Shown in pieces: positions 24,957-37,810 of a stretch of 64,000 nt of DNA (positions are counted from its first letter, which is position 1; every line of letters starts with the position of its first letter). The DNA is from Myxococcales bacterium (GTDB taxonomy: Bacteria; Myxococcota; Myxococcia; Myxococcales; UBA5297). The stretch covers positions 211,930 through 275,929 of the forward strand of contig JAVBMV010000003.1 of the NCBI GenBank assembly GCA_031552145.1, given 5' to 3'. The position numbers and the translations under genes were made by a program. The notes below the pieces were generated by a model that was not told the DNA's origin, did no database searches, and worked only from the letters and a program-made list of their open reading frames with translations.

Positions 24957-26195
24957 CTAAAAGCCGTGCAGTACCAGCCCGCTGCGCAGCTTGGGCTCGA
25001 ACCAGGTGCTCTTCGGCGGCATGATCTGGCCGGCGTCGGCGATGCTCATGAGCTGGTCGATCTGCGTGGGGAACATGGCGAAGGCCACCTTGGCCTGGCC
25101 AGCGTCGACGCGCTTCTCCAGCTCCTGCATGCCGCGGATGCCGCCCGAGAAGTCGATGCGCTTGTCGGTGCGCGGATCCTTGATGCCGAGGACGGGGCCG
25201 AGCAGGTTCTCCTGCAGAATGGAGACGTCGAGGTTCTTCACGGGATCCTTCTCGTCGAAGGTGCCCGCCTTGGCGGTGAGCATGTACCAGGCGCCCTCGA
25301 GGTACATACCGAAATCGTGCAGCTTCGAGGGGCTCTTCTGCGAGGAGGGCACCATGGTGAACTTGGCGCCGATCTCCGCCTTGAACTGCTCGACCGTGCG
25401 GCCGTTGAGATCTTTCACGAGCCGGTTGTAGTCCATGATCTGCATCTGGTTGTGCGGGAAGATCACGGCGAGGAAGTAGTCATGCTCGGCGTCGCCCGTG
25501 GGCTTCTTGCCAGCGCGCGCGGCGCGCGCCTCGGAGGTGCGGGCGGCGGCGGCGGAGCGGTGGTGGCCGTCGGCGATATAGGTCGCGGGGAGCTTCGCGA
25601 ACTCGCGCACCAGCGCGGCGATGTCGGCGTCGCCCGAGACGACCCAGAAGGTGTGGCGAATGCCGTCGTCGGTCTCGAAGTCATACTCGGGCTTCGCGGC
25701 GATGAGGCGGTTGACGATGTCGTCGATCTCCTTGCGCGCCGGATAGGTGAGGAAGACGGGCTCGTCATTGCCGTTGAGGCGATCGATGTGCTGGGTGCGA
25801 TCGTCCTCTTTGTCGGCGCGCGTCAGCTCGTGCTTCTTGATGGTGCCCTTGCGGTACTCCTCGCAGCTGGCGGCGGCGACGAGGCCCACCTGTTCGTGCT
25901 TCCCCATCTTCTGCTTGTAGAGATAGAGGCAGGGCTTGGCGTCGGCCTTCAGGTGCCCCTCTTTGACGAAGAGCTGCAGGTTGGTCAGGCCCAGGTCATA
26001 GACCTCGGGGGCGTGGGCGTCGGTGCCGGGGGGCAGGTCGATCTCGGGGCGGCTGATGCGGAAGAAGGAGAGCGGATTCCCCTTACCGTAGGCGCGCGCC
26101 TCCTCGCTGTCGACCACGTCATAGGGCGGGCACGCGACCTTGAGGACCTTCTCCTGGGGCGGGCGAAGTCCCGCGAATGGGCGAATGACTGACAT
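24957..26195 (-). CDS. DUF1015 family protein
   Basis: 412 aa. MSVIRPFAGLRPPQEKVLKVACPPYDVVDSEEA is the family N-terminus as I recall it. RBS GGAGAAAG. Confidence 0.85.
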   Translation of the reverse strand: MSVIRPFAGLRPPQEKVLKVACPPYDVVDSEEARAYGKGNPLSFFRISRPEIDLPPGTDAHAPEVYDLGLTNLQLFVKEGHLKADAKPCLYLYKQKMGKHEQVGLVAAASCEEYRKGTIKKHELTRADKEDDRTQHIDRLNGNDEPVFLTYPARKEIDDIVNRLIAAKPEYDFETDDGIRHTFWVVSGDADIAALVREFAKLPATYIADGHHRSAAAARTSEARAARAGKKPTGDAEHDYFLAVIFPHNQMQIMDYNRLVKDLNGRTVEQFKAEIGAKFTMVPSSQKSPSKLHDFGMYLEGAWYMLTAKAGTFDEKDPVKNLDVSILQENLLGPVLGIKDPRTDKRIDFSGGIRGMQELEKRVDAGQAKVAFAMFPTQIDQLMSIADAGQIMPPKSTWFEPKLRSGLVLHGF

Positions 26196-26258
26196 CGTTC
26201 TTTCTCCAGCGGCCGCACAGGGCCATTCGTTGGGGTTGATACAACCGGCGAAGGCCGG

Positions 26259-27155
26259 TCAGTGAAGTACAGGCAAGAGTCGGAGCGCGCGCATCGCCTC
26301 GGCGAGCTTGGCGCGCGGGGCGTCGCTCATCGGCGTGAGCGGCAGGCGCAGCTCGTCGGCGAAGAGGCCCGCCATGTGGAGCGCGGCCTTCACCGGGATG
26401 GGGTTTGACTCGCTGAAGAGCGCGTTGTGCAGCGGCACCAACATCGCCTGCATGGCGGCGGCCTTGGCGAAGTCGTGCGCCAGCGAGAGGGCGCAGAGGT
26501 CGGCGATGACTCGGGGCGCGATGTTGGCCGAGACGCTGATGACGCCCGAGCCTCCGGCCGCGATGAAGGGCGCGATGGTGAAGTCGTCGCCCGAGAGGAA
26601 AGAGAGCCCCTCGCGGCCACCCTTCTCTTTGAGCTCCAATAACCGCGCCATGGAGCCCGTCGCCTCCTTGATGCCGATGATCTCGGGGATGTCGCAGAGC
26701 CGCCGCCACACCTCGGGGGTGAGGTCACAGCCGGTGCGGCTGGGCACGTTGTAGGCGATGATGGGGAAGCCGGGGTGGGCCTTGGCGATGGCCGCGAAGT
26801 GAGCGACGAGGCCGGCCGCGACGGGCTTGTTGTAATAGGGCGTGACGATGAGCGCGGCGTCGGCGCCCTGCTCCCGCGCGCGCGCCACCGACTCGATGGT
26901 GGTGCGCGTGCTGTTGGTGCCTGCGCCCGCGATGACCGGGACGCGCCCCGCCGCCGATTCGACAGCCGTGCGGATGAGCAGGTTCCGCTCCTCCTGCGTC
27001 AGCGTGGCGTACTCACCCGTGGTCCCGATGGGAACGAGCCCCGCGGTGCCGTTGCCGATCTGCAGGCGGATGAGGGCTCGGTAGGCGTCGACGTCGACCT
27101 CGTCGCCCCGCAGTGGTGTGGCGAGCGCGACGAAAGAACCTCTCAGCGGTGTCAT
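26259..27155 (-). CDS. dapA: 4-hydroxy-tetrahydrodipicolinate synthase
   Basis: 298 aa with GTTGE, TPYYNKP, YNVPSRTG and GIKEATG (Schiff-base Lys). Confidence 0.9.
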   Translation of the reverse strand: MTPLRGSFVALATPLRGDEVDVDAYRALIRLQIGNGTAGLVPIGTTGEYATLTQEERNLLIRTAVESAAGRVPVIAGAGTNSTRTTIESVARAREQGADAALIVTPYYNKPVAAGLVAHFAAIAKAHPGFPIIAYNVPSRTGCDLTPEVWRRLCDIPEIIGIKEATGSMARLLELKEKGGREGLSFLSGDDFTIAPFIAAGGSGVISVSANIAPRVIADLCALSLAHDFAKAAAMQAMLVPLHNALFSESNPIPVKAALHMAGLFADELRLPLTPMSDAPRAKLAEAMRALRLLPVLH

Positions 27156-27210
27156 GTCGGAGCTCCTATCGAATCGGGTGGGCCGCGGCGGGCCGGCAGG
27201 GGGTAGGACT

Positions 27211-28362
27211 CTAGCAGAAGCGCTCTATCGCCGCGGCGAGCGTATCGCGGCAGGCGAGCAGCTGCGCCTCGGGCACATACTCGCCCGTGCGGTGGGCCAC
27301 GGCGATGTCGCCGGGGCCGAAGACCACCACCTCGGCCCCCAGCGCCGCGAGGCAGGGCGCCTCGGTGAAGTAGGAGACCGCCGCCGCCGGGCGACCGCTC
27401 CGCTCGACCATGAAGCGCACCAGCTCCGAGTCGACGGCGCTCTCGAAGGGAGGGTCGCGCCGCGGCGCCTCGATCTTGATGGTGAGCGAGCGGCTCTCCG
27501 CCACGTCGCGGGCGGCCGCCTCCACCACGCCCAGGACACGCTCGAGGGGCTGGCCGGGGACGGGGCGCCACTCGAGGGTGAAGCCGCAGTTTCCGGGGAT
27601 GACGTTCTCGGCGGTGCCACCCGAGAGCGTTCCGATGTTGAGCGTGCTGTAGGGCGGCTCGAAGTCGGCGTGGCTCTCCTGCCGGATGGTGCGCGTGAGC
27701 ACCTCTATTCGGGAGATGAGCTCCGCGGCGCCCAGAATGGCCGAGCGCCCGGAGTCGGGGCGCGCGCTGTGCCCCTCTGCCCCCTGAACCTCGATGTGGG
27801 CGAGGCCATAGCCCTTGTGGGCGCGCACCGGCGTGAGACCCGTTGGCTCTCCAACGATCGCGCGGCGCGGGCGCGCCAGGGCCGCCTCCAGCAGCCGCTT
27901 GGCGCCCAGGCACCCCAGCTCCTCCTCGGCGGTGAAGATGAGCGCGAGGGGGCGCCTGAGCGAAGCGCGCAGTGCGAGCGCCGACGCCTCCAGCGCGCAG
28001 GCGATGAAGCCCTTGGTGTCGCAGGCGCCGCGGCCGATGAGCAGCGTGCCTTCGTCCCCCTCCTCGCTGTGACCTTCACAGAGCGCGAGCGCCTGCGGCC
28101 ACGAAGCGGAAAAGGGGACGGTGTCGGTGTGCCCCACGAGGGCCAGCTCGATGGGCTCAGCCTCGGAGCACCCGGGCGGCCGATAGATCGCGATGAGGTT
28201 CGCCTTCTCGACGCCGAGCGCGTCCTGCCAGCGCTGGCGCTGCGAGACGAAGCCGAGCGCGCGCAGCGCATCATCGAGGTAGTCGATGATGGGCAGGTTG
28301 CTCTTCGACGAGGTGCTGTCGATGGCCACCAGCTCTGTCAGCCGCGCGCGCAAGTCTCTCAT
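27211..28362 (-). CDS. M20-family metallo-deacylase (ArgE/DapE-like)
   Basis: Start at MRDLRARLTELVAIDSTS (RBS GGAGAT). LVGHTDTVP and GRGACDTKGF motifs. The extension to 28443 is unsupported. Confidence 0.85.
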   Translation of the reverse strand: MRDLRARLTELVAIDSTSSKSNLPIIDYLDDALRALGFVSQRQRWQDALGVEKANLIAIYRPPGCSEAEPIELALVGHTDTVPFSASWPQALALCEGHSEEGDEGTLLIGRGACDTKGFIACALEASALALRASLRRPLALIFTAEEELGCLGAKRLLEAALARPRRAIVGEPTGLTPVRAHKGYGLAHIEVQGAEGHSARPDSGRSAILGAAELISRIEVLTRTIRQESHADFEPPYSTLNIGTLSGGTAENVIPGNCGFTLEWRPVPGQPLERVLGVVEAAARDVAESRSLTIKIEAPRRDPPFESAVDSELVRFMVERSGRPAAAVSYFTEAPCLAALGAEVVVFGPGDIAVAHRTGEYVPEAQLLACRDTLAAAIERFC

Positions 28363-28387
28363 CTCGTATCTCCGCCAGCGGGCCTCG

Positions 28388-29905
28388 CTACGCGATCGCC
28401 TTGGCCACGGTCGCCTCGACCTGAGCCACCAGGGCGTTGCCACGCTCGAGCAGCTTGGCCGCCTTTGCGCGCTGCGCCTCGACGTAGGCCGCGTCCTTGA
28501 GCGAGGGGAGGTTGATCAGCACATTCATGTGGGCGCCCTTGAGCGCCGTGGAGAGGTGCAGCGCGCCGACGCCGACGTCGGTGATCGAGTTCTTGTTGCC
28601 CTTCTCCGCGATCACCTTGGCGCGCTCGAGGGCGTCGACCGCCAGCGCCATCACCTGCAGTGGCACCTCGCAGGCGCCCTGGGTCGCCGCCTGGATCGCG
28701 GCGCTGCGCGCGCCCTTCTCCTCGTCGGTCCCCTTGGGCAGCTTGAACGCCTCCATGACCTTGTCGAAGGCCTCGGCGTCCTTGTCGATGAAGGCATGGA
28801 ACTGCCCCATCATCGGGTCGAGCGCCGCCTTGTGAGCGGCGATCTCGGTCGAGACCTCTTCGTACCCCTTCTTGCCAGCGGTGAGGCCCGCGACCATCGA
28901 GAGCAATCCCACGCCGACCGCGCCCGAGAGCGCCGAGGCGGAGCCACCGCCGGGCGTCGGCGTGGCGGCCTGCACCTCGCCGAGGAAGTCGGTGAGGCTC
29001 TTGCCCGCGTGCGCCAGCTTCGACTCGAGGATCTGCTCGGGCTTGAAGAGGTCGAGCTGCAGATACCAGACGGCCGCGTCGATGAGCGCCTGCTGCGGGA
29101 TGAGCCCGATCAGCTCGCTCTCCTTGATGGTGACGCCATAGCGCTCGGCCTCGCGCTTCACGAACTCGAAGGCGCGGTGCAGGCCGGTGCCGGTGTAGTT
29201 GGTCATGTTGATCGAGACCTGGGCGCAGTTGCGCTCCTTGATCTCGAAGCCCATCGACTTGGCGTAGGTGAAGCCGCCGTCACGGCCGCGCAGGCTCTTG
29301 GCGATCTTCTTCGCGATGGAGACGTCGGTGGTGTTGAGGTTGATGTTGTAGGCGACGAGCGGGAAGCGCGCGCCGATCACCGTGGCGCCCGCGGTGGGGT
29401 GCAGCTCGCAGGGGCCGAAGTCGGGGGCGCGCGCCGGGTCGGTGCGGACGGCCTCGCGGATGCCCTCGAACTCACCCTTGCGGATCACGGCGAGATCGCG
29501 CCGCTCGGGGCGCTGCGCGGCCATCTCGTAGAGATAGGTGGGGATCTTCAGCTCGTCGGAGACGCGCTTCGCCACGCGCTTCGCCAGCTCGACGCACTCT
29601 TCGTTGGTGACGCCCGAGATGGGGATGAATGGGACGACGTCGGTGGCGCCCATGCGCGGGTGCTCGCCCTGGTGCTTGGTGAGGTCGATCAGCTCCGAGG
29701 CCTTCTTGATGCCGCGGAATGCCGCCTCGGCGCACTGCTCCGGCTCACCGACGAAGGTGACGACGGCGCGATTGTGGTTCGCGTCCATGCTCTGCTCGAG
29801 GAGCGTGACGCCCTGGACCGACTGGATGGCGGCGAGGATCTGATCGATGACTTCGGGGCGGCGCCCCTCGCTGAAGTTGGGAACGCATTCGACGATTCTG
29901 CTCAT
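28388..29905 (-). CDS. ftcD: Glutamate formimidoyltransferase / formiminotetrahydrofolate cyclodeaminase (bifunctional)
   Basis: Start at MSRIVECVPNFSEGRRPEVIDQI (FTCD N-terminus). The C-terminal half is GGGSASALSGAVGVGLLSMV (cyclodeaminase). Confidence 0.85.
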   Translation of the reverse strand: MSRIVECVPNFSEGRRPEVIDQILAAIQSVQGVTLLEQSMDANHNRAVVTFVGEPEQCAEAAFRGIKKASELIDLTKHQGEHPRMGATDVVPFIPISGVTNEECVELAKRVAKRVSDELKIPTYLYEMAAQRPERRDLAVIRKGEFEGIREAVRTDPARAPDFGPCELHPTAGATVIGARFPLVAYNINLNTTDVSIAKKIAKSLRGRDGGFTYAKSMGFEIKERNCAQVSINMTNYTGTGLHRAFEFVKREAERYGVTIKESELIGLIPQQALIDAAVWYLQLDLFKPEQILESKLAHAGKSLTDFLGEVQAATPTPGGGSASALSGAVGVGLLSMVAGLTAGKKGYEEVSTEIAAHKAALDPMMGQFHAFIDKDAEAFDKVMEAFKLPKGTDEEKGARSAAIQAATQGACEVPLQVMALAVDALERAKVIAEKGNKNSITDVGVGALHLSTALKGAHMNVLINLPSLKDAAYVEAQRAKAAKLLERGNALVAQVEATVAKAIA

Positions 29906-30032
29906 GTCTGGTGAAGCTCCTTTCGAGATCGGCATGCTATGGGGCGCCGCGAAGAGGGTCAACCTGCCGAAAATCGGTCGTTTTTTCGATGCTTTCCGCG
30001 CGGTGCGCACTCTCGGTGTAGGGTGCGGGCGC

Positions 30033-31064
30033 ATGGATTCACCCGACAGCCGCAATGACCTGGAGCTCTGCAACGGCGACCTGCGCCTGCGCGGCACCGA
30101 GCTCTTCCTCGACGCGACGCGCCCGAGGCAGCTCTCCTTCATCTCGCACGCCCATGCGGATCATCTCGCGCGCCATGAACAGGCGATCGCCACGGCGGCG
30201 ACGCTGGCGCTCGCGGGCAAGCGCGGCGCGGCGCCCCGCTCGGCCCTCCCCGTCCCGTACCGCCAGCCTTTCAACCTGGGGGCCCTGGAGCTGACGCTCT
30301 TCCCGGCGGGGCATGTGCTCGGTTCGGCCCAGCTGCGCGTGGTGCGCTCCGTCGGCCGCACCAAGCAGCGCATCCTCTATACGGGCGATCTCAACCCCGT
30401 GCCCGGCCTTACCGCCGAGCCGGCCGAGCCCGTGGCGTGCGACCTGCTGGTGCTCGAGTCGACCTTCGGGCTCCCGCGCTATCGCTTCCCACCGCGCGAA
30501 GAGACCTATGAGGCGATGGCCGCCTTCGCGCGCCGCTGCTTCGACGCGGGCGCAGTGCCCACCTTCCTGGCCTACTCCTTGGGAAAGGCACAGGAGGGGA
30601 TAAAGGCGCTGGTGGAGCGCGGCGTGAGCGTCGCGGCCCATCCCGCCATCAGCGAGCTCTGCGAGGTCTATGAACGCTTTGGCTGTGCCCTCCCCCACCG
30701 CCTCTTCCGCGCAGCGCAAGGCCGAGAGGCGGAGCGAGAGGGGGGCCCGCGCCAAGGCGAGGCGCTCTTCTGGCCCTTGGGCGGAGGCCCCCTGCGGCTG
30801 CCCGAGAGCGCGATGCCGCTCTGCACCGCGGCGCTGACGGGCTGGGCACTCGACTCGAGCACCCGTTATCGCATGGGCGTGGACGAGGCCTTCCCGCTCT
30901 CGGACCATGGCGACTTCGAAGCGCTGCTCGGCTACGCCGCCGCGACCGGGGCGAAGCGCATCCTCACCCACCATGGCTCGGCCAAGGAGTTCGCGGCGGC
31001 GCTGCGCGACCGCGGCTTCGAGGCCTGGCCGCTGGTGCCCTCGAAGCAGCTCGAGCTCTTCTAA
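30033..31064 (+). CDS. MBL-fold metallo-hydrolase, beta-CASP-like nuclease family
   Basis: Start at MDSPDS. Motifs: HxHxDH (SHAHADHL), LVLESTFG and PLSDHGDF. Confidence 0.8.
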   Translation: MDSPDSRNDLELCNGDLRLRGTELFLDATRPRQLSFISHAHADHLARHEQAIATAATLALAGKRGAAPRSALPVPYRQPFNLGALELTLFPAGHVLGSAQLRVVRSVGRTKQRILYTGDLNPVPGLTAEPAEPVACDLLVLESTFGLPRYRFPPREETYEAMAAFARRCFDAGAVPTFLAYSLGKAQEGIKALVERGVSVAAHPAISELCEVYERFGCALPHRLFRAAQGREAEREGGPRQGEALFWPLGGGPLRLPESAMPLCTAALTGWALDSSTRYRMGVDEAFPLSDHGDFEALLGYAAATGAKRILTHHGSAKEFAAALRDRGFEAWPLVPSKQLELF

Positions 31065-31068
31065 GGAA

Positions 31069-31103
31069 GAAGAGCCCGGCGGCGCGGGGCCACCGGGCTC
31101 TTC
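31069..31103. terminator. Hairpin between convergent genes (possible bidirectional terminator)
   Basis: Perfect 11-bp inverted repeat GAAGAGCCCGG (31069-31079) / CCGGGCTCTTC (31093-31103) with a 13-nt loop. On the minus strand it is followed by TTCCTT. Confidence 0.4.
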
Positions 31104-31128
31104 ATGGCAACCGGCCTACGTTGCGCGC

Positions 31129-34100
31129 CTAGCGATTGGCGGCGCGCGCGCTCCTGCGCCGCCCCAGCGCGGCCATCGGGAGCGCGATGAGTGAGAGCCA
31201 GAGCGCGCTGGCGGCGCCGGGGCTCGAGGAACAGCCGCCGCTCCCCTTCACCGTCACCTTGCCGGGGTCTTTCTCGGGCACGACGCAGGCGCCCTCGACA
31301 CAGACGAAAGAGCGGGAGCAATCGCCATCGTTCCTGCAAGAGTGGAGGCACGCATCGTCGCCGCAGGCGTAGGGAGCGCAGGACTTGGGCTCCACCAAGT
31401 CGCAGGTGCCGGTCCCATCGCAGGTGGCTTCAAAGGTGACTGCGCCATCGCGGCAGCTCGCGTCTCCGCAGCGGGTCTCCTCGCCGGGATAGGCGCAGGC
31501 GTCGCTATTCTTGCCGTCGCAGAACCCGGCGCAGGAGCCGACACCGATGCAAGGCTTGTGGCCGGGGCGCGGGAGCCCCGTCACTGCGACGCACCTGCCG
31601 CGCGCGTAGGACTCGCTGCACGACTCGCAGCTCCCATCGCAAGCGTTCTCACAGCAGACGCCGTCGACACAGGGCGCGCCGCCAGCGCACTGGTTCTCAC
31701 CGAAGCAGGCCGCGCCGCGCGGCAGCCTGGGCACGCAGAGTCCGGCGGAGCAGTAGTGGTCGGCGCCAGAGCAGTCCTCATCACAGGTGCAGTCGCCTCT
31801 GCAGCTACCCTCTTCGCAGACGAAGGGGGCACAGCTCTGGCGCTTCGCGGTGGGACAGAAACCCGTACCGGTGCAGCTCGTCGCCAGGTAGACCTTCGTT
31901 CCCGACTCGTCGCAGGTGGCCTCCTCGCCACAGGCCGTCTCACTGTTGGGATAGACGCAGGTGGTGTGGACGCCATCGCAGGTACCGGCGCAGGTGTCGC
32001 CCGCTTCGCCTCCGCAGAGGGGTCGTCCATTCCTTGGAACACCAACCGCCGCGCTGCAGATACCCGCGCGTCCAGCGAGGTCGCACGCCTCGCACTGGCT
32101 GCCGCAGGAGGTGTCGCAGCAGAGCCCGTCGATGCAGTAGCCCGACGCGCAGTCGATGTGGGCCGAGCACTCCGTCCCGAGCGGGAGCAGCTTCTTGGGC
32201 ACGCAGGTGCCCGCGCCCTCCGAGGCGTCGCAGTACGCCATCGGCGCGCACTGCGCGTTCTCGGTGCAGCGGGTGGCACAGCCGCCGGCGGGCGCGCAGA
32301 GGTAGGGCGCGCAGGAGGTTACGGTAGCAGCGGGGCAGAGCGGGTCGCCACCGGAGCAGGTCGCCTCGGAATGGAGCTCGCCCACGCAGCTCGGCGCCAG
32401 GCAGACTTTGGTCGCGGGCTCGAAGCCATCGTTCGGGCAGGTGGCCGCGCTGCCCGTGCAGTGCTCGGCCACGTCACACGGGCCAGCCTTCGAGCGGCAC
32501 TCGACGCTCGCCGGGCGGAAGGCGTCGGTGGGGCAGGCGACCGCACTGCCGGTGCAGTGCTCCTCGACGTCGCACTCGCCCGCGGAGGAGCGGCAGACCG
32601 TGGAGGCGGGCTTGAAGGCGAGGCCCGCGGGACAAGTGGCGGAGAGACCGTCGCACTTGACGTCTTCCTCGCAGGGGCCCGACTTAGTGGAGGCCCTGCA
32701 GATCGCCCCGGCGTTGGCGGGCTTCGTGTGGTCGCAGATGCCCGCCTTGCAGGTATCCGCGGAGCAGAGGCCTCCGTCGTCGAGACAAGGAGTTCCGTCG
32801 GGCTTCGCCGCCGAGGCCTGGCAGGCGGAGCTGCCGCCGGAGCAGACGGGCGCCTCGAGGCACTCGTTAGCCGCCTTTCCACAGACGGTGCCGGCCGCCT
32901 TGTAGCCGGTGGCGGGGCAGGCGATCTGGACTCCGTCGCAGCGCCGGACGTCGTCGCACACGCCACTCCCGGCGGCGCCGCAGACCGCGCCGCCGTTGGC
33001 GGGCTTGTGCTCGCAGACTCCCGCCTTACAAGTGTCGCTCGAACAGACGCTGCCATCGTCGAGGCAGGGAGTGCCGTCGGGCTTCGCGGACGCGGCGGGG
33101 CAGACCGGGCTCGCGCCCGTGCAGACCGGCGCATCGGTACACTCGTTCGTGGCGAGACCGCAGACGGCACCGGCGTTACCGGAGACGCTGACGCACTGGC
33201 CCGTTGCGCTGCAGCGATCCACGGTGCAGATGTTGCCGTCGTCGACGGCGGCGGTGCAGGTCGTGCCCGCGGGCTTCGTGGGCTTCAAGGGGCAGGCGCG
33301 CTGCACGCCGTTGCAGTAGGCGGGCTCCTGGCAGGGGCCGACGTCGGCGCCGTCGCAGAGGATGCCCTGGCGCGCGGGCCCACAGACACCATCGGTGGGC
33401 GCGCCCTTCGCCGCGGTGCAGGCCTCGCAGTCGCCATCGACGCCACCGCCGCACGCCTCGTTGCAGCAGACGCCGTCGACGCAGAAGCCGCTGCCACACT
33501 CGGAGCCTTGGCCGCAAACCTTGCCATTCCTGCCCTTGACGCGGCAGGTCTGGAATTCGGCCGAGTTGGGATCGAGGTTGCAGAAGAGCTCCTTGCCCTC
33601 CTCGTTGCACTGCAGATCGGCGGTGCAGGGCTGCGCCTCGACGGCGAAGGCGATCTCCCAGAGGTCGCCCGAGTTGCCTGGGAAGGAGGAGGGGGGATTT
33701 CCACCCAACTTCTCGCGCGTGGGTTCGGGCAGCTCCAGGCTGGTGCTGCCGCCATGCAGATAGAAATAGCCGTCGCGGAAGAGCATCGCCGCGCCCTGGC
33801 GCGCGGCGAGGCGTGGAGGCAGCGGCATCTCGGCGAAGGTGACACCATCGGTCACATAGGCCTTCGCGGAAAGCTGGCCGCTCTCATCCACACCGCCGAC
33901 GATGAGGGCGCGCTTGCCATCGGAGGCCATCGCGAAGCGCGAGAGCTTGGGCAGGCCGACGTTGGCCTGGCTCCACTGCGAGGTGGCTGGATCGAAGAAC
34001 CAGGAATCGCCGTGGCGGGCGGCGCCCGATGGGAAGAGGCCATTCTCGAGATCGACGTCCTCGCCACCATGGAGGAAGAGCTTCCCGTTGAGCATCGCAG

Positions 34101-36603
34101 TGCCCGCGAAGGCGCGCGCCGCCGGGCCGCGGCTCAGGATGGTGGCGTTCCAGGCGCTGTCGGACTCACTCAGCGTCGCCATGGCGCGCGGCTGGGTAAA
34201 GGGGCGGTATCCGTGGGCGGGAGTCGGGAGCGTAGAGGAGGAGTACCTCGCCGCCGCGCCGCCGAAGAAGAGGAGCTTGTCGCCGAGGCTCTGCAGGGAA
34301 TAGCCCACCTGCGTCGGCGCGGTCTTGTCGGTCAGCCTGATCCAGTAGCCGTAGCTGCCCGGCGCGGGGCTTACCGGCGGCACCCACTTCCAGGTGTCCC
34401 AGGCGAAGGGACCCGAGCCGTTGTAGGCGATGGCTCCGTTGAAGAGATAAAGGGTGCCATTGAGGTTGACCATCTTGTGGAGCGCGCGCCCGACGGGATG
34501 GCAGAGCCCCGTGGTGGTGCAGGCCGGATTGATCAGCTCCTGGCCGCTTTCCGAATGCGCCGCCACCTTCCGCCAGCCGCTCTCCTCGTTCCACTGCCAG
34601 GTGTCGGAGGCATGGGCGTAGGTGGGCATCCCATCGCTCTGAAACCCGCCGTTGAGCAGGAAGGAGCCGTCGCTGGTGAGCGCCATGGCGTGGAAAGAGC
34701 GGTGCGGCCCCATCGGATCGGTGTCGAGCAGACGCCAGCTCCCGCCCATCTCTTTGCAGCGCCCCTCGACGCAGGCTGCCCCTTGGGCGCAGTCGTGTGA
34801 GGTGGAACAACCCGTGGCACCACAGAGACCCGCGCTACACTTGGCTCCTTCGCAGTCCGTGACCGTGGCGATCTCGCAGGAGCCGCGCCCGTTGCAGTGG
34901 TGCGTCTCAACATCGGCGGCGCCGACACCGCAGGAGGGGGCGGCGCAGGTGCGCTCCATCCCGGGCCAGACGCAGTCGAAGGAGGCGCCGTCGCAATAGG
35001 AGGCACAGGCAGCGCCGGCGGGCGCGGGACAAGCCGGCCTATGGGTCGGCGCCGCCGTGGCGACACAGGTCCCCGTGTCGTCGCAGTGGGAGCAGGCTCC
35101 GGTACAGGCGCTGGTGCAGCAGACACCATCCGCGGCGAAGCCGGCGGTGGCGCAGTGGGCGGCCACGTCGACCGGCTGGCCATCGGCGATGAGCGGGATG
35201 CAGCGCTGGAAAGTGGACGAGCCCGCGTTGCGCTTGTCGCAGAACTGCCCCTCGACGCAGTCGGCGTCGGCGGCGCAGGTGTAGTTGACGAGCTGCCAGA
35301 GCTCGTCGCTGTTGCCAGCAACGAAGGTATTCGTCGTGACCCCCGCCGGGCGCGGCTCGGGAAGCTCGACGTTGGTGGTGCCCCCGTAGAGATAGAAGCG
35401 GCCATCCAAATAGAGCATCACCGCGCCTTGGCGCGCGCTGGGCCCTTGGGCGGGGACCGTCACTTCGTGTGCCGTGATGCCGTCAGTCACATAGAGCTTG
35501 CCGCTCAGCGCGCCGCCCTGATCGATCCCGCCGAAGATGAGCGCGCGCTTGCCATCGCTCGCCATGGCGAAGCGCGAGCGCATGGGCAGGTTGGTCACAC
35601 CGGTGTCGCTCCACGAAGCGCCGTCATATCGCTGCAGATCGGAGAAGGAGGCCTGCTTGCCCGAGAAGGTAGTGCCCTGCACCACCTCACCGCCATAGAG
35701 CAGCGCGGTGCCGTCGGCCATGGAGACCATGCGCGCGAAGAAGCGGTCGACATTTGCTGGCACGGGAAGCGCCGCGCCGTCGTTGCGATCGTCAGAGGGG
35801 TTGACCTCGCCATAGACGGAGAAGTCCGGCGTGTACTTCACCGAGGTGGGATAGGCGGGATTGGCGACCGTGCGGGTTGCCAACGTCGCGTCGTTGTTCC
35901 CCGTCAGGAAGCCTCCGACCACCAGCACATCGTTGCCCAGCACCGTGAGCGCGTAGCCGGCCTGCGCGGGCCAGACGAGCATGTTTGGGTTGGGGCTCTT
36001 CTGCCACCAGGCGACATCGCCGCCCGAGGGAGGCCTGAAGCGCCAGGTGTCCCACTTGAAGTTGGAGCCATTGGGGGCGCCTCCACCGAAAAGCACCAAC
36101 TCGTCGCCCACCTGGGCCAGCGTCGCGAAGGTGCGACCGTTGGGGTAGCAATTACCTTTGTCGACCTCGGTGCAGGCGCTCACGCTCTCGCGCCCTGTGT
36201 AAACCTCGCGCCAGTCGGAGAGGTAGCTCCAGGCGCGGCTCGCGGGATCGTACTGCCAGGTGTCGCTCGCCTGCGGGCTGTCGCCGAGGCCCCTGTCATT
36301 CTGGAAGCCACCGTTGAGGATGAACCTGCCCTGGTGCACGGCCATGTTGTGGAAGGAGCGCGCCGGCCCCGCCGCCGTCGGCGTTACCTTTTCCCACTGG
36401 TATTCGCGTGGGCTGCAGAGATTGCCCGGGCCACAATACTCGGTCGCGGAGCAGCCCGCCGCGCAGGAGAGCTTCTGGCTTACGCTCCCGAACTCGCCGC
36501 GCGTTCCTTTCGGCGCGCCGGGACTGCAGGCCGCGACGAGCGCCGCGAGGGCAAGCGTTGCGACCGAGAATAGTGACGCCTGGCGGCGATATGTCTTGTG
36601 CAT
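31129..36603 (-). CDS. Surface lipoprotein with two Kelch propeller modules, cysteine-rich (disintegrin-like) stalk and MYXO-CTERM tail (1824 aa)
   Basis: Start at MHKTYRRQASLFSVATLALAALVAACS (RBS AAGGGA; the ORF extension to 36741 is unsupported). Kelch-type repeats, a very high Cys content and the C-terminal tag. Confidence 0.9.
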   Translation of the reverse strand: MHKTYRRQASLFSVATLALAALVAACSPGAPKGTRGEFGSVSQKLSCAAGCSATEYCGPGNLCSPREYQWEKVTPTAAGPARSFHNMAVHQGRFILNGGFQNDRGLGDSPQASDTWQYDPASRAWSYLSDWREVYTGRESVSACTEVDKGNCYPNGRTFATLAQVGDELVLFGGGAPNGSNFKWDTWRFRPPSGGDVAWWQKSPNPNMLVWPAQAGYALTVLGNDVLVVGGFLTGNNDATLATRTVANPAYPTSVKYTPDFSVYGEVNPSDDRNDGAALPVPANVDRFFARMVSMADGTALLYGGEVVQGTTFSGKQASFSDLQRYDGASWSDTGVTNLPMRSRFAMASDGKRALIFGGIDQGGALSGKLYVTDGITAHEVTVPAQGPSARQGAVMLYLDGRFYLYGGTTNVELPEPRPAGVTTNTFVAGNSDELWQLVNYTCAADADCVEGQFCDKRNAGSSTFQRCIPLIADGQPVDVAAHCATAGFAADGVCCTSACTGACSHCDDTGTCVATAAPTHRPACPAPAGAACASYCDGASFDCVWPGMERTCAAPSCGVGAADVETHHCNGRGSCEIATVTDCEGAKCSAGLCGATGCSTSHDCAQGAACVEGRCKEMGGSWRLLDTDPMGPHRSFHAMALTSDGSFLLNGGFQSDGMPTYAHASDTWQWNEESGWRKVAAHSESGQELINPACTTTGLCHPVGRALHKMVNLNGTLYLFNGAIAYNGSGPFAWDTWKWVPPVSPAPGSYGYWIRLTDKTAPTQVGYSLQSLGDKLLFFGGAAARYSSSTLPTPAHGYRPFTQPRAMATLSESDSAWNATILSRGPAARAFAGTAMLNGKLFLHGGEDVDLENGLFPSGAARHGDSWFFDPATSQWSQANVGLPKLSRFAMASDGKRALIVGGVDESGQLSAKAYVTDGVTFAEMPLPPRLAARQGAAMLFRDGYFYLHGGSTSLELPEPTREKLGGNPPSSFPGNSGDLWEIAFAVEAQPCTADLQCNEEGKELFCNLDPNSAEFQTCRVKGRNGKVCGQGSECGSGFCVDGVCCNEACGGGVDGDCEACTAAKGAPTDGVCGPARQGILCDGADVGPCQEPAYCNGVQRACPLKPTKPAGTTCTAAVDDGNICTVDRCSATGQCVSVSGNAGAVCGLATNECTDAPVCTGASPVCPAASAKPDGTPCLDDGSVCSSDTCKAGVCEHKPANGGAVCGAAGSGVCDDVRRCDGVQIACPATGYKAAGTVCGKAANECLEAPVCSGGSSACQASAAKPDGTPCLDDGGLCSADTCKAGICDHTKPANAGAICRASTKSGPCEEDVKCDGLSATCPAGLAFKPASTVCRSSAGECDVEEHCTGSAVACPTDAFRPASVECRSKAGPCDVAEHCTGSAATCPNDGFEPATKVCLAPSCVGELHSEATCSGGDPLCPAATVTSCAPYLCAPAGGCATRCTENAQCAPMAYCDASEGAGTCVPKKLLPLGTECSAHIDCASGYCIDGLCCDTSCGSQCEACDLAGRAGICSAAVGVPRNGRPLCGGEAGDTCAGTCDGVHTTCVYPNSETACGEEATCDESGTKVYLATSCTGTGFCPTAKRQSCAPFVCEEGSCRGDCTCDEDCSGADHYCSAGLCVPRLPRGAACFGENQCAGGAPCVDGVCCENACDGSCESCSESYARGRCVAVTGLPRPGHKPCIGVGSCAGFCDGKNSDACAYPGEETRCGDASCRDGAVTFEATCDGTGTCDLVEPKSCAPYACGDDACLHSCRNDGDCSRSFVCVEGACVVPEKDPGKVTVKGSGGCSSSPGAASALWLSLIALPMAALGRRRSARAANR
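31132..31245 (-). other. MYXO-CTERM-type C-terminal sorting tag
   Basis: GSGGCSSSPGAASALWLSLIALPMAALGRRRSARAANR: a Gly-Cys motif, a hydrophobic helix and an Arg cluster at the extreme C-terminus. Confidence 0.7.
32428..33366 (-). repeat. Array of disintegrin-like cysteine loops (C-x5-6-C-D/E-x4-C-x-G-x4-C-P)
   Basis: Units: CDGADVGPCQEPAYCNGVQRACP, CGLATNECTDAPVCTGASPVCP, CGAAGSGVCDDVRRCDGVQIACP, CGKAANECLEAPVCSGGSSACQ, CRASTKSGPCEEDVKCDGLSATCP, CRSSAGECDVEEHCTGSAVACPTD (32524-32595), CRSKAGPCDVAEHCTGSAATCPND (32428-32499). Confidence 0.65.
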
Positions 36604-36787
36604 GTCATTCCCTTCGCGGTCTATCCGCGCCGTGGTGCTATCGCCCAGCGCCGCGGCGCCGTCAACCTTTGCGACATGTAGTCGCGAGTGATCTTCACTC
36701 TGACCAAACGGATTGACTGCTCTCGAGGTCCGCGTTCCCATTGCCCACAGAGAGTGGCGAGCTCGGGCGCCAGAGACGTCCTCGCTA

Positions 36788-37810
36788 CTACGTGCCTACC
36801 GCTCGAGCCACTTCGGCCTCGGCAGAGGATCCGCTTTGCCACGGTCCACTCAGCGCGATGAGCTCGGGAGGCAGGGGCGCCGAGAAGCGCATCCAACGCC
36901 CGTCCGCGGGATGCTCTACCTCGAGGAGCGAGGCGTGCAGCGCGTGGCGCTCGAGCCTGAGCGCCACCCTGTCCGCCTCGGTGAGCGCGCCGTTGATGAA
37001 GCGCAGGAAAACCTGCTCGTCTCGATAGAGCTTGTCGCCAATGATTGGATATCCAACATGTCCCAGGTGCGCCCGAATCTGGTGCTGGCGACCGGTCAGC
37101 GGCTCGCATTCGAGGAGGGCGGCGGGGGCGCCATCCGTGAGCTCGAAGCGGCGCAATACTGTGAAGCGCGTGACCGACTCTTTTCCGCGCTCCCGATCGA
37201 TCACCGCGCGAACGCGCACCACATCACCACCCACATAGAGTGGCGCGTCGACGACAAAGAGGTCGTCGCGGGGGGAACCCTCCACCAGCGCGAGGTAGCG
37301 CTTCTTCACGCGACCTTCGAAGAAGGCGAGGTTGAGCGCGCGCGTCGCCTCGGGGTGATTTCCGCAGATGACGATCCCGCTCGTCTCTCGATCGAGACGG
37401 TGCGCCGGATCGAGCTTCTCGCCGGGGAGACCGTGCTCGCGCACCAGCGAGACGAAGGTATCCTTCACATAGGTGCCCGAAGGGTGCATCGGCATGCCCG
37501 CCGGCTTATTGACCACGAAAATGTCGGTGTCGCGGTAGAGCACCGTGAGGTGGGTGGGTGTCTTGGGCTGCTCGGGGCGGAGGCGCGAGAAGGTGAGGCG
37601 CATCCCCTCCGCCAGGAAGGTGGAGGCCTTCGGCCGCCTCGGCAGCGGGCCGCTCTCCGTCGCCACCTCGATCCCCTTTTCGATCAGCTCCTGGGCGCGC
37701 GCCCGCGTCATTTGATGGATCTTGGCGCAGAGATAGCGGTCGAGCCGCCACCCTTCGTACTTGGACTCGACCACGAATCGGACAGTCTGTAGGCGCTCCC
37801 CTTCTTCCAT
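36788..37810 (-). CDS. RluA-family pseudouridine synthase (with S4-like N-terminus)
   Basis: Start at MEEGERLQTVRF. RLDRYLCAKI (S4), HRLDRETSGIVICG (catalytic Asp) and TGRQHQIRAHL. The 557-aa maximal ORF overlaps the opposite-strand FAH gene. Confidence 0.85.
   Translation of the reverse strand: MEEGERLQTVRFVVESKYEGWRLDRYLCAKIHQMTRARAQELIEKGIEVATESGPLPRRPKASTFLAEGMRLTFSRLRPEQPKTPTHLTVLYRDTDIFVVNKPAGMPMHPSGTYVKDTFVSLVREHGLPGEKLDPAHRLDRETSGIVICGNHPEATRALNLAFFEGRVKKRYLALVEGSPRDDLFVVDAPLYVGGDVVRVRAVIDRERGKESVTRFTVLRRFELTDGAPAALLECEPLTGRQHQIRAHLGHVGYPIIGDKLYRDEQVFLRFINGALTEADRVALRLERHALHASLLEVEHPADGRWMRFSAPLPPELIALSGPWQSGSSAEAEVARAVGT

Follow-up and report, generated by a model that had tools for sequence, protein, structure and literature searches.

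The window analysed here, the whole stretch of 64,000 nucleotides of DNA from a Myxococcales bacterium, carries on its minus strand an open reading frame (ORF) of 1870 amino acids (aa), listed at 31129-36741, whose product contains at aa 1129-1440 (32422-33357) a tandem array of short cysteine-rich units. These units match the C-terminal "arm" (Da) sub-domain of the disintegrin domain found in ADAMs and in P-III snake-venom metalloproteinases (SVMPs), the part that holds Ca2+ site III, and not a full disintegrin domain, an assignment that draws on the Pfam Disintegrin model, a shuffling control and AlphaFold2 (AF2) modelling. The array is best read as an array of Da-like modules from a large, mainly bacterial repeat family, and it probably serves as a stiff extracellular stalk and not as an integrin binder.

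Composition of the array

The array is ordered U1-CT1-U2-CT2-U3-U4-CT3-U5-U6-U7 and comprises seven four-cysteine units (U) of roughly 32 residues, together with three smaller four-cysteine units, referred to here as CT units. The last two U units, U6 (CRSSAGECDVEEHCTGSAVACPTDAF; aa 1383-1408, 32518-32595) and U7 (CRSKAGPCDVAEHCTGSAATCPNDGF; aa 1415-1440, 32422-32499), are those quoted in an earlier reading of this DNA (the original prediction), and both are present exactly and in frame in the translation of the minus strand. U6 is canonical, with the spacing C-x6-C-x5-C-x6-C and the full Ca2+ site III consensus (CDVEEHCTGSAVACPTD), as indicated by a consensus regular expression, by phmmer and by a predicted local distance difference test (pLDDT) score of 96-98, and U7 is likewise canonical with the full consensus (CDVAEHCTGSAATCPND), according to the same expression and to AF2. 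The five units upstream of them, which begin at aa 1129 (U1), 1194 (U2), 1254 (U3), 1287 (U4) and 1348 (U5) and which occupy 32629-33357 with CT1-CT3 interspersed, are present as announced and are indeed diverged, having kept the cysteine frame and the glycine and lost the Ca2+ ligands. The claim that all units share one cysteine spacing holds for U2, U4, U6 and U7, the only ones with the full 6-5-6 arrangement, but not for U1, U3 and U5, in which the first loop has 7-8 residues.

CT1 (33193-33258) starts at aa 1162 and is diverged; CT2 (CLDDGSVCSSDTCKAGVC; 33013-33066) starts at aa 1226 and CT3 (32734-32787) at aa 1319, and both follow exactly the pattern K-P-D-G-T-P-C-L-D-D-G-x-x-C-S-x-D-T-C-K-A-G-x-C. 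The alternation with K-P-D-G-T-P-C units that had been described is therefore borne out by two exact copies and one diverged copy, although it is not strict. An internal DNA duplication of 279 nucleotides (nt), at 73% identity, connects U2-CT2 and U4-CT3.

All three CT units align with the start of the ADAM/SVMP "wrist" (Cw), as seen in the alignment to SVMPs of a profile built from 25 unit+CT pairs. This unit+CT profile aligns SVMPs across the Da→Cw boundary with the three extra cysteines all in register, and it also matches ADAM10 (E = 2e-5) and ADAM17, the Cw match by the CT units being limited to the first ~20 residues. The CT units are spaced C-x6-C-x4-C-x4-C and start 11 residues past the last cysteine of the preceding unit, which equals the unit-to-unit offset, and the start of the SVMP Cw, counted by hand, is spaced C-x6-C-x4-C-x6-C; given this spacing and offset, two related four-cysteine units in tandem may make up the ADAM Da-Cw junction as well. 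The CT units also resemble the Dictyostelium CTDC repeat (PF00526) in the form C-x-D-D-G-N-x-C-T-x-D-x-C, and some relatives in the family carry a precomputed PF00526 label. They differ from it in that the Dicty_CTDC model scores CT1 (aa 1166-1185) at 21.6-25.0 bits, below its gathering cutoff of 27, and in that they also align with the ADAM Cw start. Because they resemble both, the assignment of the CT units is ambiguous.

Match to the Da sub-domain of ADAMs

Searched on its own, the region aa 1126-1438 matches Pfam Disintegrin (PF00200), one of the two models named for this purpose in the original prediction, with 81.5 bits (E = 8e-23; gathering score 35.1) in seven stretches, and its diverged part alone (aa 1126-1347, U1-U4) matches in four stretches with E = 1.8e-6. 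The other model, ADAM_CR (PF08516), gave no match at E<=10. All Disintegrin stretches correspond to profile positions 45-75 of 75, and since only these are matched, the units do not constitute a full disintegrin domain: the likeness is specific and statistically strong, by the Pfam model as well as by the bacterial-only profile and the superposition described below, but the domain that had been proposed is reduced to its Da part. By phmmer against PDB sequences, U6 aligns with atragin (E = 3.5e-4) and with the RVV-X heavy chain (E = 8e-4). A unit profile of 33 columns, built from 123 non-eukaryotic units, retrieves from the PDB 15 distinct sequences, all of them P-III SVMPs, ADAM22 or RGD disintegrins, at E down to 5.7e-12 and with the disintegrin loop aligned end-to-end. 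NCBIfam yields no family at E<=10 on the array region, so that no curated bacterial Cys-rich repeat, the better-fitting explanation that the original prediction had allowed for, accounts for the array better; TIGR04201, the TraA-type repeat, is presumably included in that NCBIfam release.

The consensus for Ca2+ site III described by Takeda, CD(X)2(E/D)XCXG(X)4C(X)2(D/N) (PMC4885070), occurs exactly in U6 (aa 1390) and U7 (aa 1422) only, and U1-U5, whose acidic ligands are lost, give no match to it. The three acidic ligands retained in U6 and U7 are the Asp of C-D, the Glu three residues on, and the Asp or Asn after C-P-x. Across 2,390 family units the conserved non-Cys positions (R2 97%, G6 83%, D9 98%, E12 93%, G16 98%, P22 97% and D24 88%) reproduce the ADAM site III consensus precisely, and in units taken from 40 homologues, all pre-labelled PF00200 and 38 of them metagenomic or genomic, the dominant spacing C-x6-C-x5-C-x6-C (170 of 253 units) is that of ADAMs and SVMPs, by hand count on an RVV-X segment. 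The ADAM pattern given in the original prediction does match U6 and U7, but with its Ser displaced by one position in both. The exact E-C-D motif to which it had attached importance is incidental, the residue before C-D being Glu in 7% of 2,328 units; it is the Cys-Asp pair that is near-invariant, because the ADAM consensus makes this Asp one of the Ca2+ ligands.

The bacterial unit and the Da segment found in ADAMs and in P-III SVMPs thus have in common the spacing C-x6-C-x5-C-x6-C, the C-R, C-D, x-x-E, C-x-G and C-P-x-D/N positions and a following module that aligns with the start of Cw. They differ in that the bacterial unit is free-standing and occurs in tandem (seven copies here, up to 44 in relatives), whereas the animal segment occurs once within the metalloprotease-disintegrin-cysteine-rich (M-D-C) architecture, and in that the protein in the window has neither the Ds part with Ca2+ site II nor a reprolysin domain nor ADAM_CR: the whole ORF contains no site II motif of the form XCGN(X)3EXGEXCD, no HExxH and no Pfam Reprolysin match. 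The classic venom disintegrins (echistatin, trimestatin, rhodostomin and acostatin) have a homologous hairpin and appear as weaker matches of the same profile and of the fold search. They are devoid of the loop cysteine and of the Ca2+ sites, carry a mobile RGD/KGD tip and bind integrins, whereas the bacterial units have kept both this cysteine and the Ca2+ ligands and have essentially no such tripeptide.

Structure prediction points in the same direction. An AF2 model of aa 1280-1450, computed with 39 homologues, has a mean pLDDT of 90.3 (96-98 for U6-U7), a predicted TM-score (pTM) of 0.67 and almost no regular secondary structure, and the first 47 Foldseek matches of this 171-aa model in the PDB are all ADAM, SVMP or disintegrin chains, at probabilities of 0.9-1.0. 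With a two-unit model of U6-U7 (pLDDT 79.8), all 50 of the top 50 PDB matches belong to the disintegrin family, at a probability of 1.00. In a structural alignment of the kind that the original prediction had called for, the fit of one predicted unit to P-III D-loops extends over 33-35 residues, of which 44-48% are identical, at 1.1-1.5 Å, so that in the model one bacterial unit shares its backbone fold with the solved D-loops. U6 and U7 would be Ca2+-loaded, disulfide-locked knots.

It has to be noted that a number of results speak against this assignment. Scored over the whole protein, Pfam Disintegrin reaches 33.3 bits after bias correction (E = 8.8e-8), which is just under the gathering score, and the unit+CT profile improves on the score of the unit alone by a few bits only. 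The Ca2+ ligands are absent from five of the seven units. The best Foldseek E-value of the 171-aa model is only 2.4e-3, with low global TM-scores; for U6-U7 the E-values of 0.04-0.07 (best 0.044) are formally weak, which is attributed to the tiny size of the unit, and AF2 was confident in only one of its five models of this pair. Finally, in ADAM two of the four cysteines of the segment bond outside it (including Cys468-Cys499 to Cw, with the third Cys bonding upstream), and an autonomous bacterial unit must therefore pair its cysteines differently. The correlated loss of cysteines was uninformative as to this pairing, all four being kept in 2,378 of ~2,400 units.

Distribution of the family and ancestry of the unit

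Out of 1.84 billion representatives of clusters formed at 50% identity, the unit profile retrieves 8,312 at E<=1e-3, 4,543 at E<=1e-10 and 2,133 at E<=1e-30, and the top family proteins are 1,000-5,500 aa long with up to 44 matched stretches. A scan of species-representative genomes with a degenerate DNA pattern for C-R-x3-G-x-C-D-x2-E-x-C-x-G-x4-C-P-x-D matched at least 120 loci. By record title, those listed include 58 named Myxococcota, 17 unresolved "Deltaproteobacteria", 10 Ca. Binatia and 6 Planctomycetota/Phycisphaerae, as well as Acidobacteriota, lineages of the candidate phyla radiation (CPR), Spirochaetes and metagenome-assembled genomes (MAGs) of two DPANN archaea; the cultured genomes among the loci listed include Sorangium sp. 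So ce513, Polyangium jinanense and Myxococcus dinghuensis, and the nearest relatives among all these loci, at about 40% identity, are Polyangiales and Myxococcales MAGs. The family belongs mainly to Myxococcota and Binatia, and by these numbers the myxobacterial copy that the original prediction considered notable is no isolated case. Outside Myxococcota and Binatia, the motif was seen in MAGs of Nanoarchaeota (L087), Woesearchaeota (L089), Spirochaetales/Spirochaetaceae (L113, L115) and CPR (L029, L036, L038, L055), with L087 and L113 having 9-10 units each, and these occurrences may reflect a real distribution, transfer or MAG contamination.

The repeat was present in all 46 of the sampled family members, and its arrays adjoin diverse heads, with Kelch, RCC1, FG-GAP, discoidin, CBM6, papain+lectin, metallophosphatase, DUF11, LTD and bacterial M12 protease domains as partners. 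One protein of 956 aa (P0083) joins a reprolysin-type protease (HEIGHNFGLSHDG; Reprolysin_3/5) to 13 units and was considered as an ADAM-like ancestor or orthologue. It was rejected as an orthologue: the protease is one of a large bacterial M12-like family whose usual partners are PPC or PKD domains, PF00200 is absent from the top 120 relatives, and none of the 120 genome loci listed has an ORF with a Zn motif alongside the arrays. P0083 is a case of domain shuffling and not an ADAM orthologue.

A motif CGDGxxDxGExCD, similar to ADAM Ca2+ site II, is found in 41 of 190 family proteins and lies directly upstream of a unit in 28 of them. In P0003, P0006, P0015, P0017 and P0018, for instance, it takes the form "CGDGxxDxGExCD...CC...C" before the first unit, and lead-in and unit together make up a compact Ds+Da-like domain in ADAM order. 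The lead-in also resembles what we take to be the myxobacterial CGDG Cys-rich repeat PF13948/DUF4215, and P0007 carries a precomputed PF13948 label. The best-scoring array homologues, P0001 and P0010, come from the transcriptome of the malawimonad flagellate Gefionella okellyi (EukProt EP00698), and in both, 8-9 canonical units stand in tandem and the signal peptide looks eukaryotic; these transcripts may stem from true eukaryotic genes or from prey bacteria present as contaminants.

Homology of the bacterial units with the ADAM/SVMP loop is well supported. Venom D-loops are 45-48% identical to bacterial units at the median (65-71% at best), and bacterial units of different proteins are 48% identical to one another at the median; these identity levels, together with the neighbouring modules and the fold that both have in common, favour common ancestry over convergence. 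The idea that a Cys-, Gly- and Ala-rich extracellular sequence merely matches Cys-rich Pfam models spuriously might appeal to the 149 cysteines of the protein and to the whole-protein score of 33.3 bits, below threshold after bias correction, and yet nine composition-preserving shuffles with every Cys fixed gave no Pfam match at E<=10, the remaining ~570 Cys-rich residues of the same protein, which include three other super-modules, gave neither a Disintegrin nor a PDB match, and the PDB matches of the unit profile were exclusively disintegrin-family chains, so that such an artefact is refuted and its probability negligible. Separate origins of a small Ca2+-binding, disulfide-rich hairpin in bacteria and in the opisthokont ADAMs are improbable as well. 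It is true that the unit has only ~32 residues, that Cys, Gly, Pro and acidic positions dominate its signal, that the structural constraints of a Ca2+ site could drive alike motifs and that the disulfide partners must differ from those of ADAM; however, about eleven conserved positions coincide, of which the cysteines are only a part, bacterial units of different proteins resemble venom D-loops as closely as they resemble one another, the similarity extends into the next module (Cw), the site II-like lead-in stands in ADAM order in 28 of the 190 proteins, the backbone of the predicted model superposes at 1.1-1.5 Å, and the Cys-fixed shuffles score nothing. A recent lateral transfer of an animal ADAM/SVMP fragment into this bacterium, for which one might cite the premise of the original prediction, the 45-55% identity of U6 to snake-venom D-loops and the many eukaryote-like domains of myxobacteria, is more improbable still: U6 and U7 have their best matches among other bacterial units (74-77% identity), ahead of animal ones (45-55%), the motif is spread over the at least 120 loci in many phyla, 4,543 representatives score at E<=1e-10, no metalloprotease or Ds part lies alongside, and the gene sits among unrelated housekeeping genes at ordinary local GC content with no mobile-element signs seen around it. 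Of the two origins that the original prediction had offered, convergence is therefore unlikely and recent transfer unsupported, and an ancient transfer, in either direction, is conceivable.

One tentative reading, to which we would give a minority share of the probability, is that the disintegrin-like domain of animals is a fused, single-copy derivative of free-standing prokaryotic repeat modules, the ADAM arm having come from an ancient, mainly bacterial Ca2+-binding stalk repeat that was acquired by an early eukaryote. In that event the CGDGxxDxGExCD module would correspond to Ds with site II, the 32-residue D-loop unit to Da with site III and the CT unit to the start of Cw, and the tandem arrays of Gefionella would be a eukaryotic trace of the same repeat pool. 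The origin of ADAMs has been placed in the opisthokont ancestor (PMC2770060), and the disintegrin-like domain, with its association with ADAM sheddases and venom toxins, is usually taken to have arisen in animals or, at most, in opisthokonts (PMC2770060).

PF00200 is a label that proteins of the family already bear in precomputed Pfam tables, the gene in the window included ("weak"). In the literature searched, a Pfam "disintegrin" entry in the domain list of the Minicystis rosea genome paper (PMC8436480) is the sole mention found, no paper describing bacterial disintegrin-loop repeats was found, and the repeat family is apparently undescribed. Its significance lies in that the Ca2+-binding core of the domain is an autonomous tandem module in thousands of mostly bacterial surface or secreted proteins, which offers a minimal, self-contained D-loop/site III knot for structural study and an outgroup for the evolution of the disintegrin/cysteine-rich arms of ADAMs and, later, of RGD disintegrins. 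For annotators, the label "Disintegrin" on a bacterial protein would indicate a stalk repeat and not integrin antagonism.

The protein and the likely role of its array

The gene was called independently on an identical Logan metagenome contig (SRR23967709_61066, 29.8 kb), which agrees with the window at 24987-37155 with 100% identity over 12,169 nt. There it encodes 1824 aa from M47, with the precomputed label "PF00200 Disintegrin (weak)", and on this call it spans 31129-36603 in the window, within the longest ORF to 36741; the ATG of M47 has a Shine-Dalgarno-like GAAGGGA 6 nt upstream. By inspection only, the N-terminus (aa 47-72, 36526-36603) resembles a signal peptide with a lipobox-like V-A-A-C. 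It is followed by a first Kelch beta-propeller (about aa 110-484, 35290-36414; Pfam Kelch families and Beta-prop_ATRN-LZTR1), by Cys-rich super-module A (aa 489-665, 34747-35277), by a second propeller (about aa 675-1034, 33640-34719; PF24681 at E = 7.7e-31, best stretch aa 748-950) and by the first half of super-module B (aa 1039-1128, 33358-33627), which aligns with the first half of A, C and D. The disintegrin-loop array then splits this copy, since the second half of B (32266-32403) resumes behind it, followed by C (31792-32265) and D (31276-31791); by self-alignment, these three parts cover aa 1447-1822 (31276-32403). The Kelch families above their Pfam cutoffs are PF24681 (107.5 bits), PF24981 (68.9 bits) and Kelch_1, 2, 3, 4 and 6, and the two propellers are 39% identical (E = 2e-62).

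The protein is accordingly an internal duplication of [Kelch propeller + Cys-rich super-module], to which two more super-modules are added. The four super-module copies, of ~170 residues each with the pattern C-x5-C...G-x-C-x-DG-x-CC-x3-C..., align with one another (A with B, C and D at E of 1e-12 to 1e-31) and have no Pfam match above threshold; below it, Dickkopf_N reaches 18 bits and DUF7107 23.5 bits. PDB sequence searches with the Kelch head and with the C-terminal Cys-rich region gave no matches. The single four-cysteine elements "C...C-x3-CDG-x4-C-x-YP" of A, C and D, which were suspected of being degenerate D-loop units because the array occupies the equivalent position in B, were rejected, as they have no Disintegrin match and an hhalign probability of 6.9%. 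The C-terminal tail (31132-31242) consists of GGCSSSPG, a hydrophobic helix and RRRSARAANR, a tripartite layout that is visible by eye and agrees with the description of MYXO-CTERM signals (PMC11980579); with TIGR03901 (MYXO-CTERM) it reaches 19.6 bits (E = 9e-4), the cutoff being 20.

Ca2+ binding, disulfide pairing, the rod shape, surface anchoring and the spacer role we infer. In the model that we consider the most probable, the array and the flanking super-modules would form a Ca2+- and disulfide-stiffened extracellular stalk that holds the two N-terminal Kelch propellers off the cell surface, and the protein would be anchored by way of its MYXO-CTERM-like C-terminal signal, following type II secretion and cleavage by myxosortase, as for TraA of Myxococcus xanthus. 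TraA has a head domain, a Cys-rich "rigid stalk" and MYXO-CTERM (PMC3325183), with sorting by myxosortase and the type II secretion system (PMC11980579). The protein in the window is alike in having N-terminal recognition head(s), a long disulfide-rich repeat region that would be a stalk and a putative C-terminal anchor of MYXO-CTERM type, and differs in that its heads are Kelch and not PA14, in that its repeats are disintegrin-loop and CT units and an unclassified 170-aa super-module and not TIGR04201, and in its lipoprotein-like N-terminus. In ADAMs, moreover, the homologous segment, fixed by Ca2+ and disulfides, is a rigid, buried structural arm (PMC4885070). This rigidity, the small loop tips without integrin-type tripeptides, the diversity of the heads and the TraA precedent favour a structural over an adhesive role.

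The main rival to the stalk is a direct adhesive role, in which the units would be true functional "disintegrin" loops whose hairpin tips bind prey, kin or a eukaryotic receptor, the array being a multivalent adhesin. By analogy with the classic venom disintegrins, which bind integrins through the homologous loop and occur among the PDB matches, such binding is conceivable; an extracellular location is predicted for the protein, binding by avidity would be well served by a multivalent array, and the high variability of unit positions 7, 13, 17-20, 23 and 25 (about 3 bits of entropy) could give rise to a variable surface. We nevertheless consider this rather doubtful. The loop-tip residues 3-6 are small and conserved (A/P-A/S-A-G, typically A-S-A-G, with G at 83%), integrin-type tripeptides hardly occur (the 2,328 family units hold 3 RGD and 2 KGD, and U1-U7 hold none), the units retain the loop cysteine along with the ligands of Ca2+ site III, and the same repeat is joined to very different heads, which fits a generic structural role. 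The stalk model has difficulties of its own: MYXO-CTERM stays just short of its cutoff, with JDVT-CTERM at a similar score (20.1, its cutoff being 27), and a lipobox at the N-terminus would imply a second anchor, which complicates a "head on a stalk". For this protein, the stalk model suggests a testable picture of a Kelch-headed, MYXO-CTERM-anchored surface receptor. The sole RGD of the ORF (aa 1648-1650, in the region of 31798-31800) is found outside the array, where super-modules C and D meet (SCRGDCTC); the chance expectation for RGD in the ORF is, by a rough estimate, about 0.4.

The operon context offers no functional tie, the neighbouring genes being unrelated. The ORFs chosen on the plus strand at 27118-28497 and 28286-29911 have no Pfam match, for which reason the true genes of the stretch 27118-29911 are probably on the opposite strand or in another frame. 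The convergent neighbour (29847-31064, plus strand) encodes 405 aa with a weak match to a metallo-beta-lactamase fold (Lactamase_B_2, 26 bits), and on the Logan contig genes for FTCD and an M20 peptidase are called between this neighbour and DHDPS.

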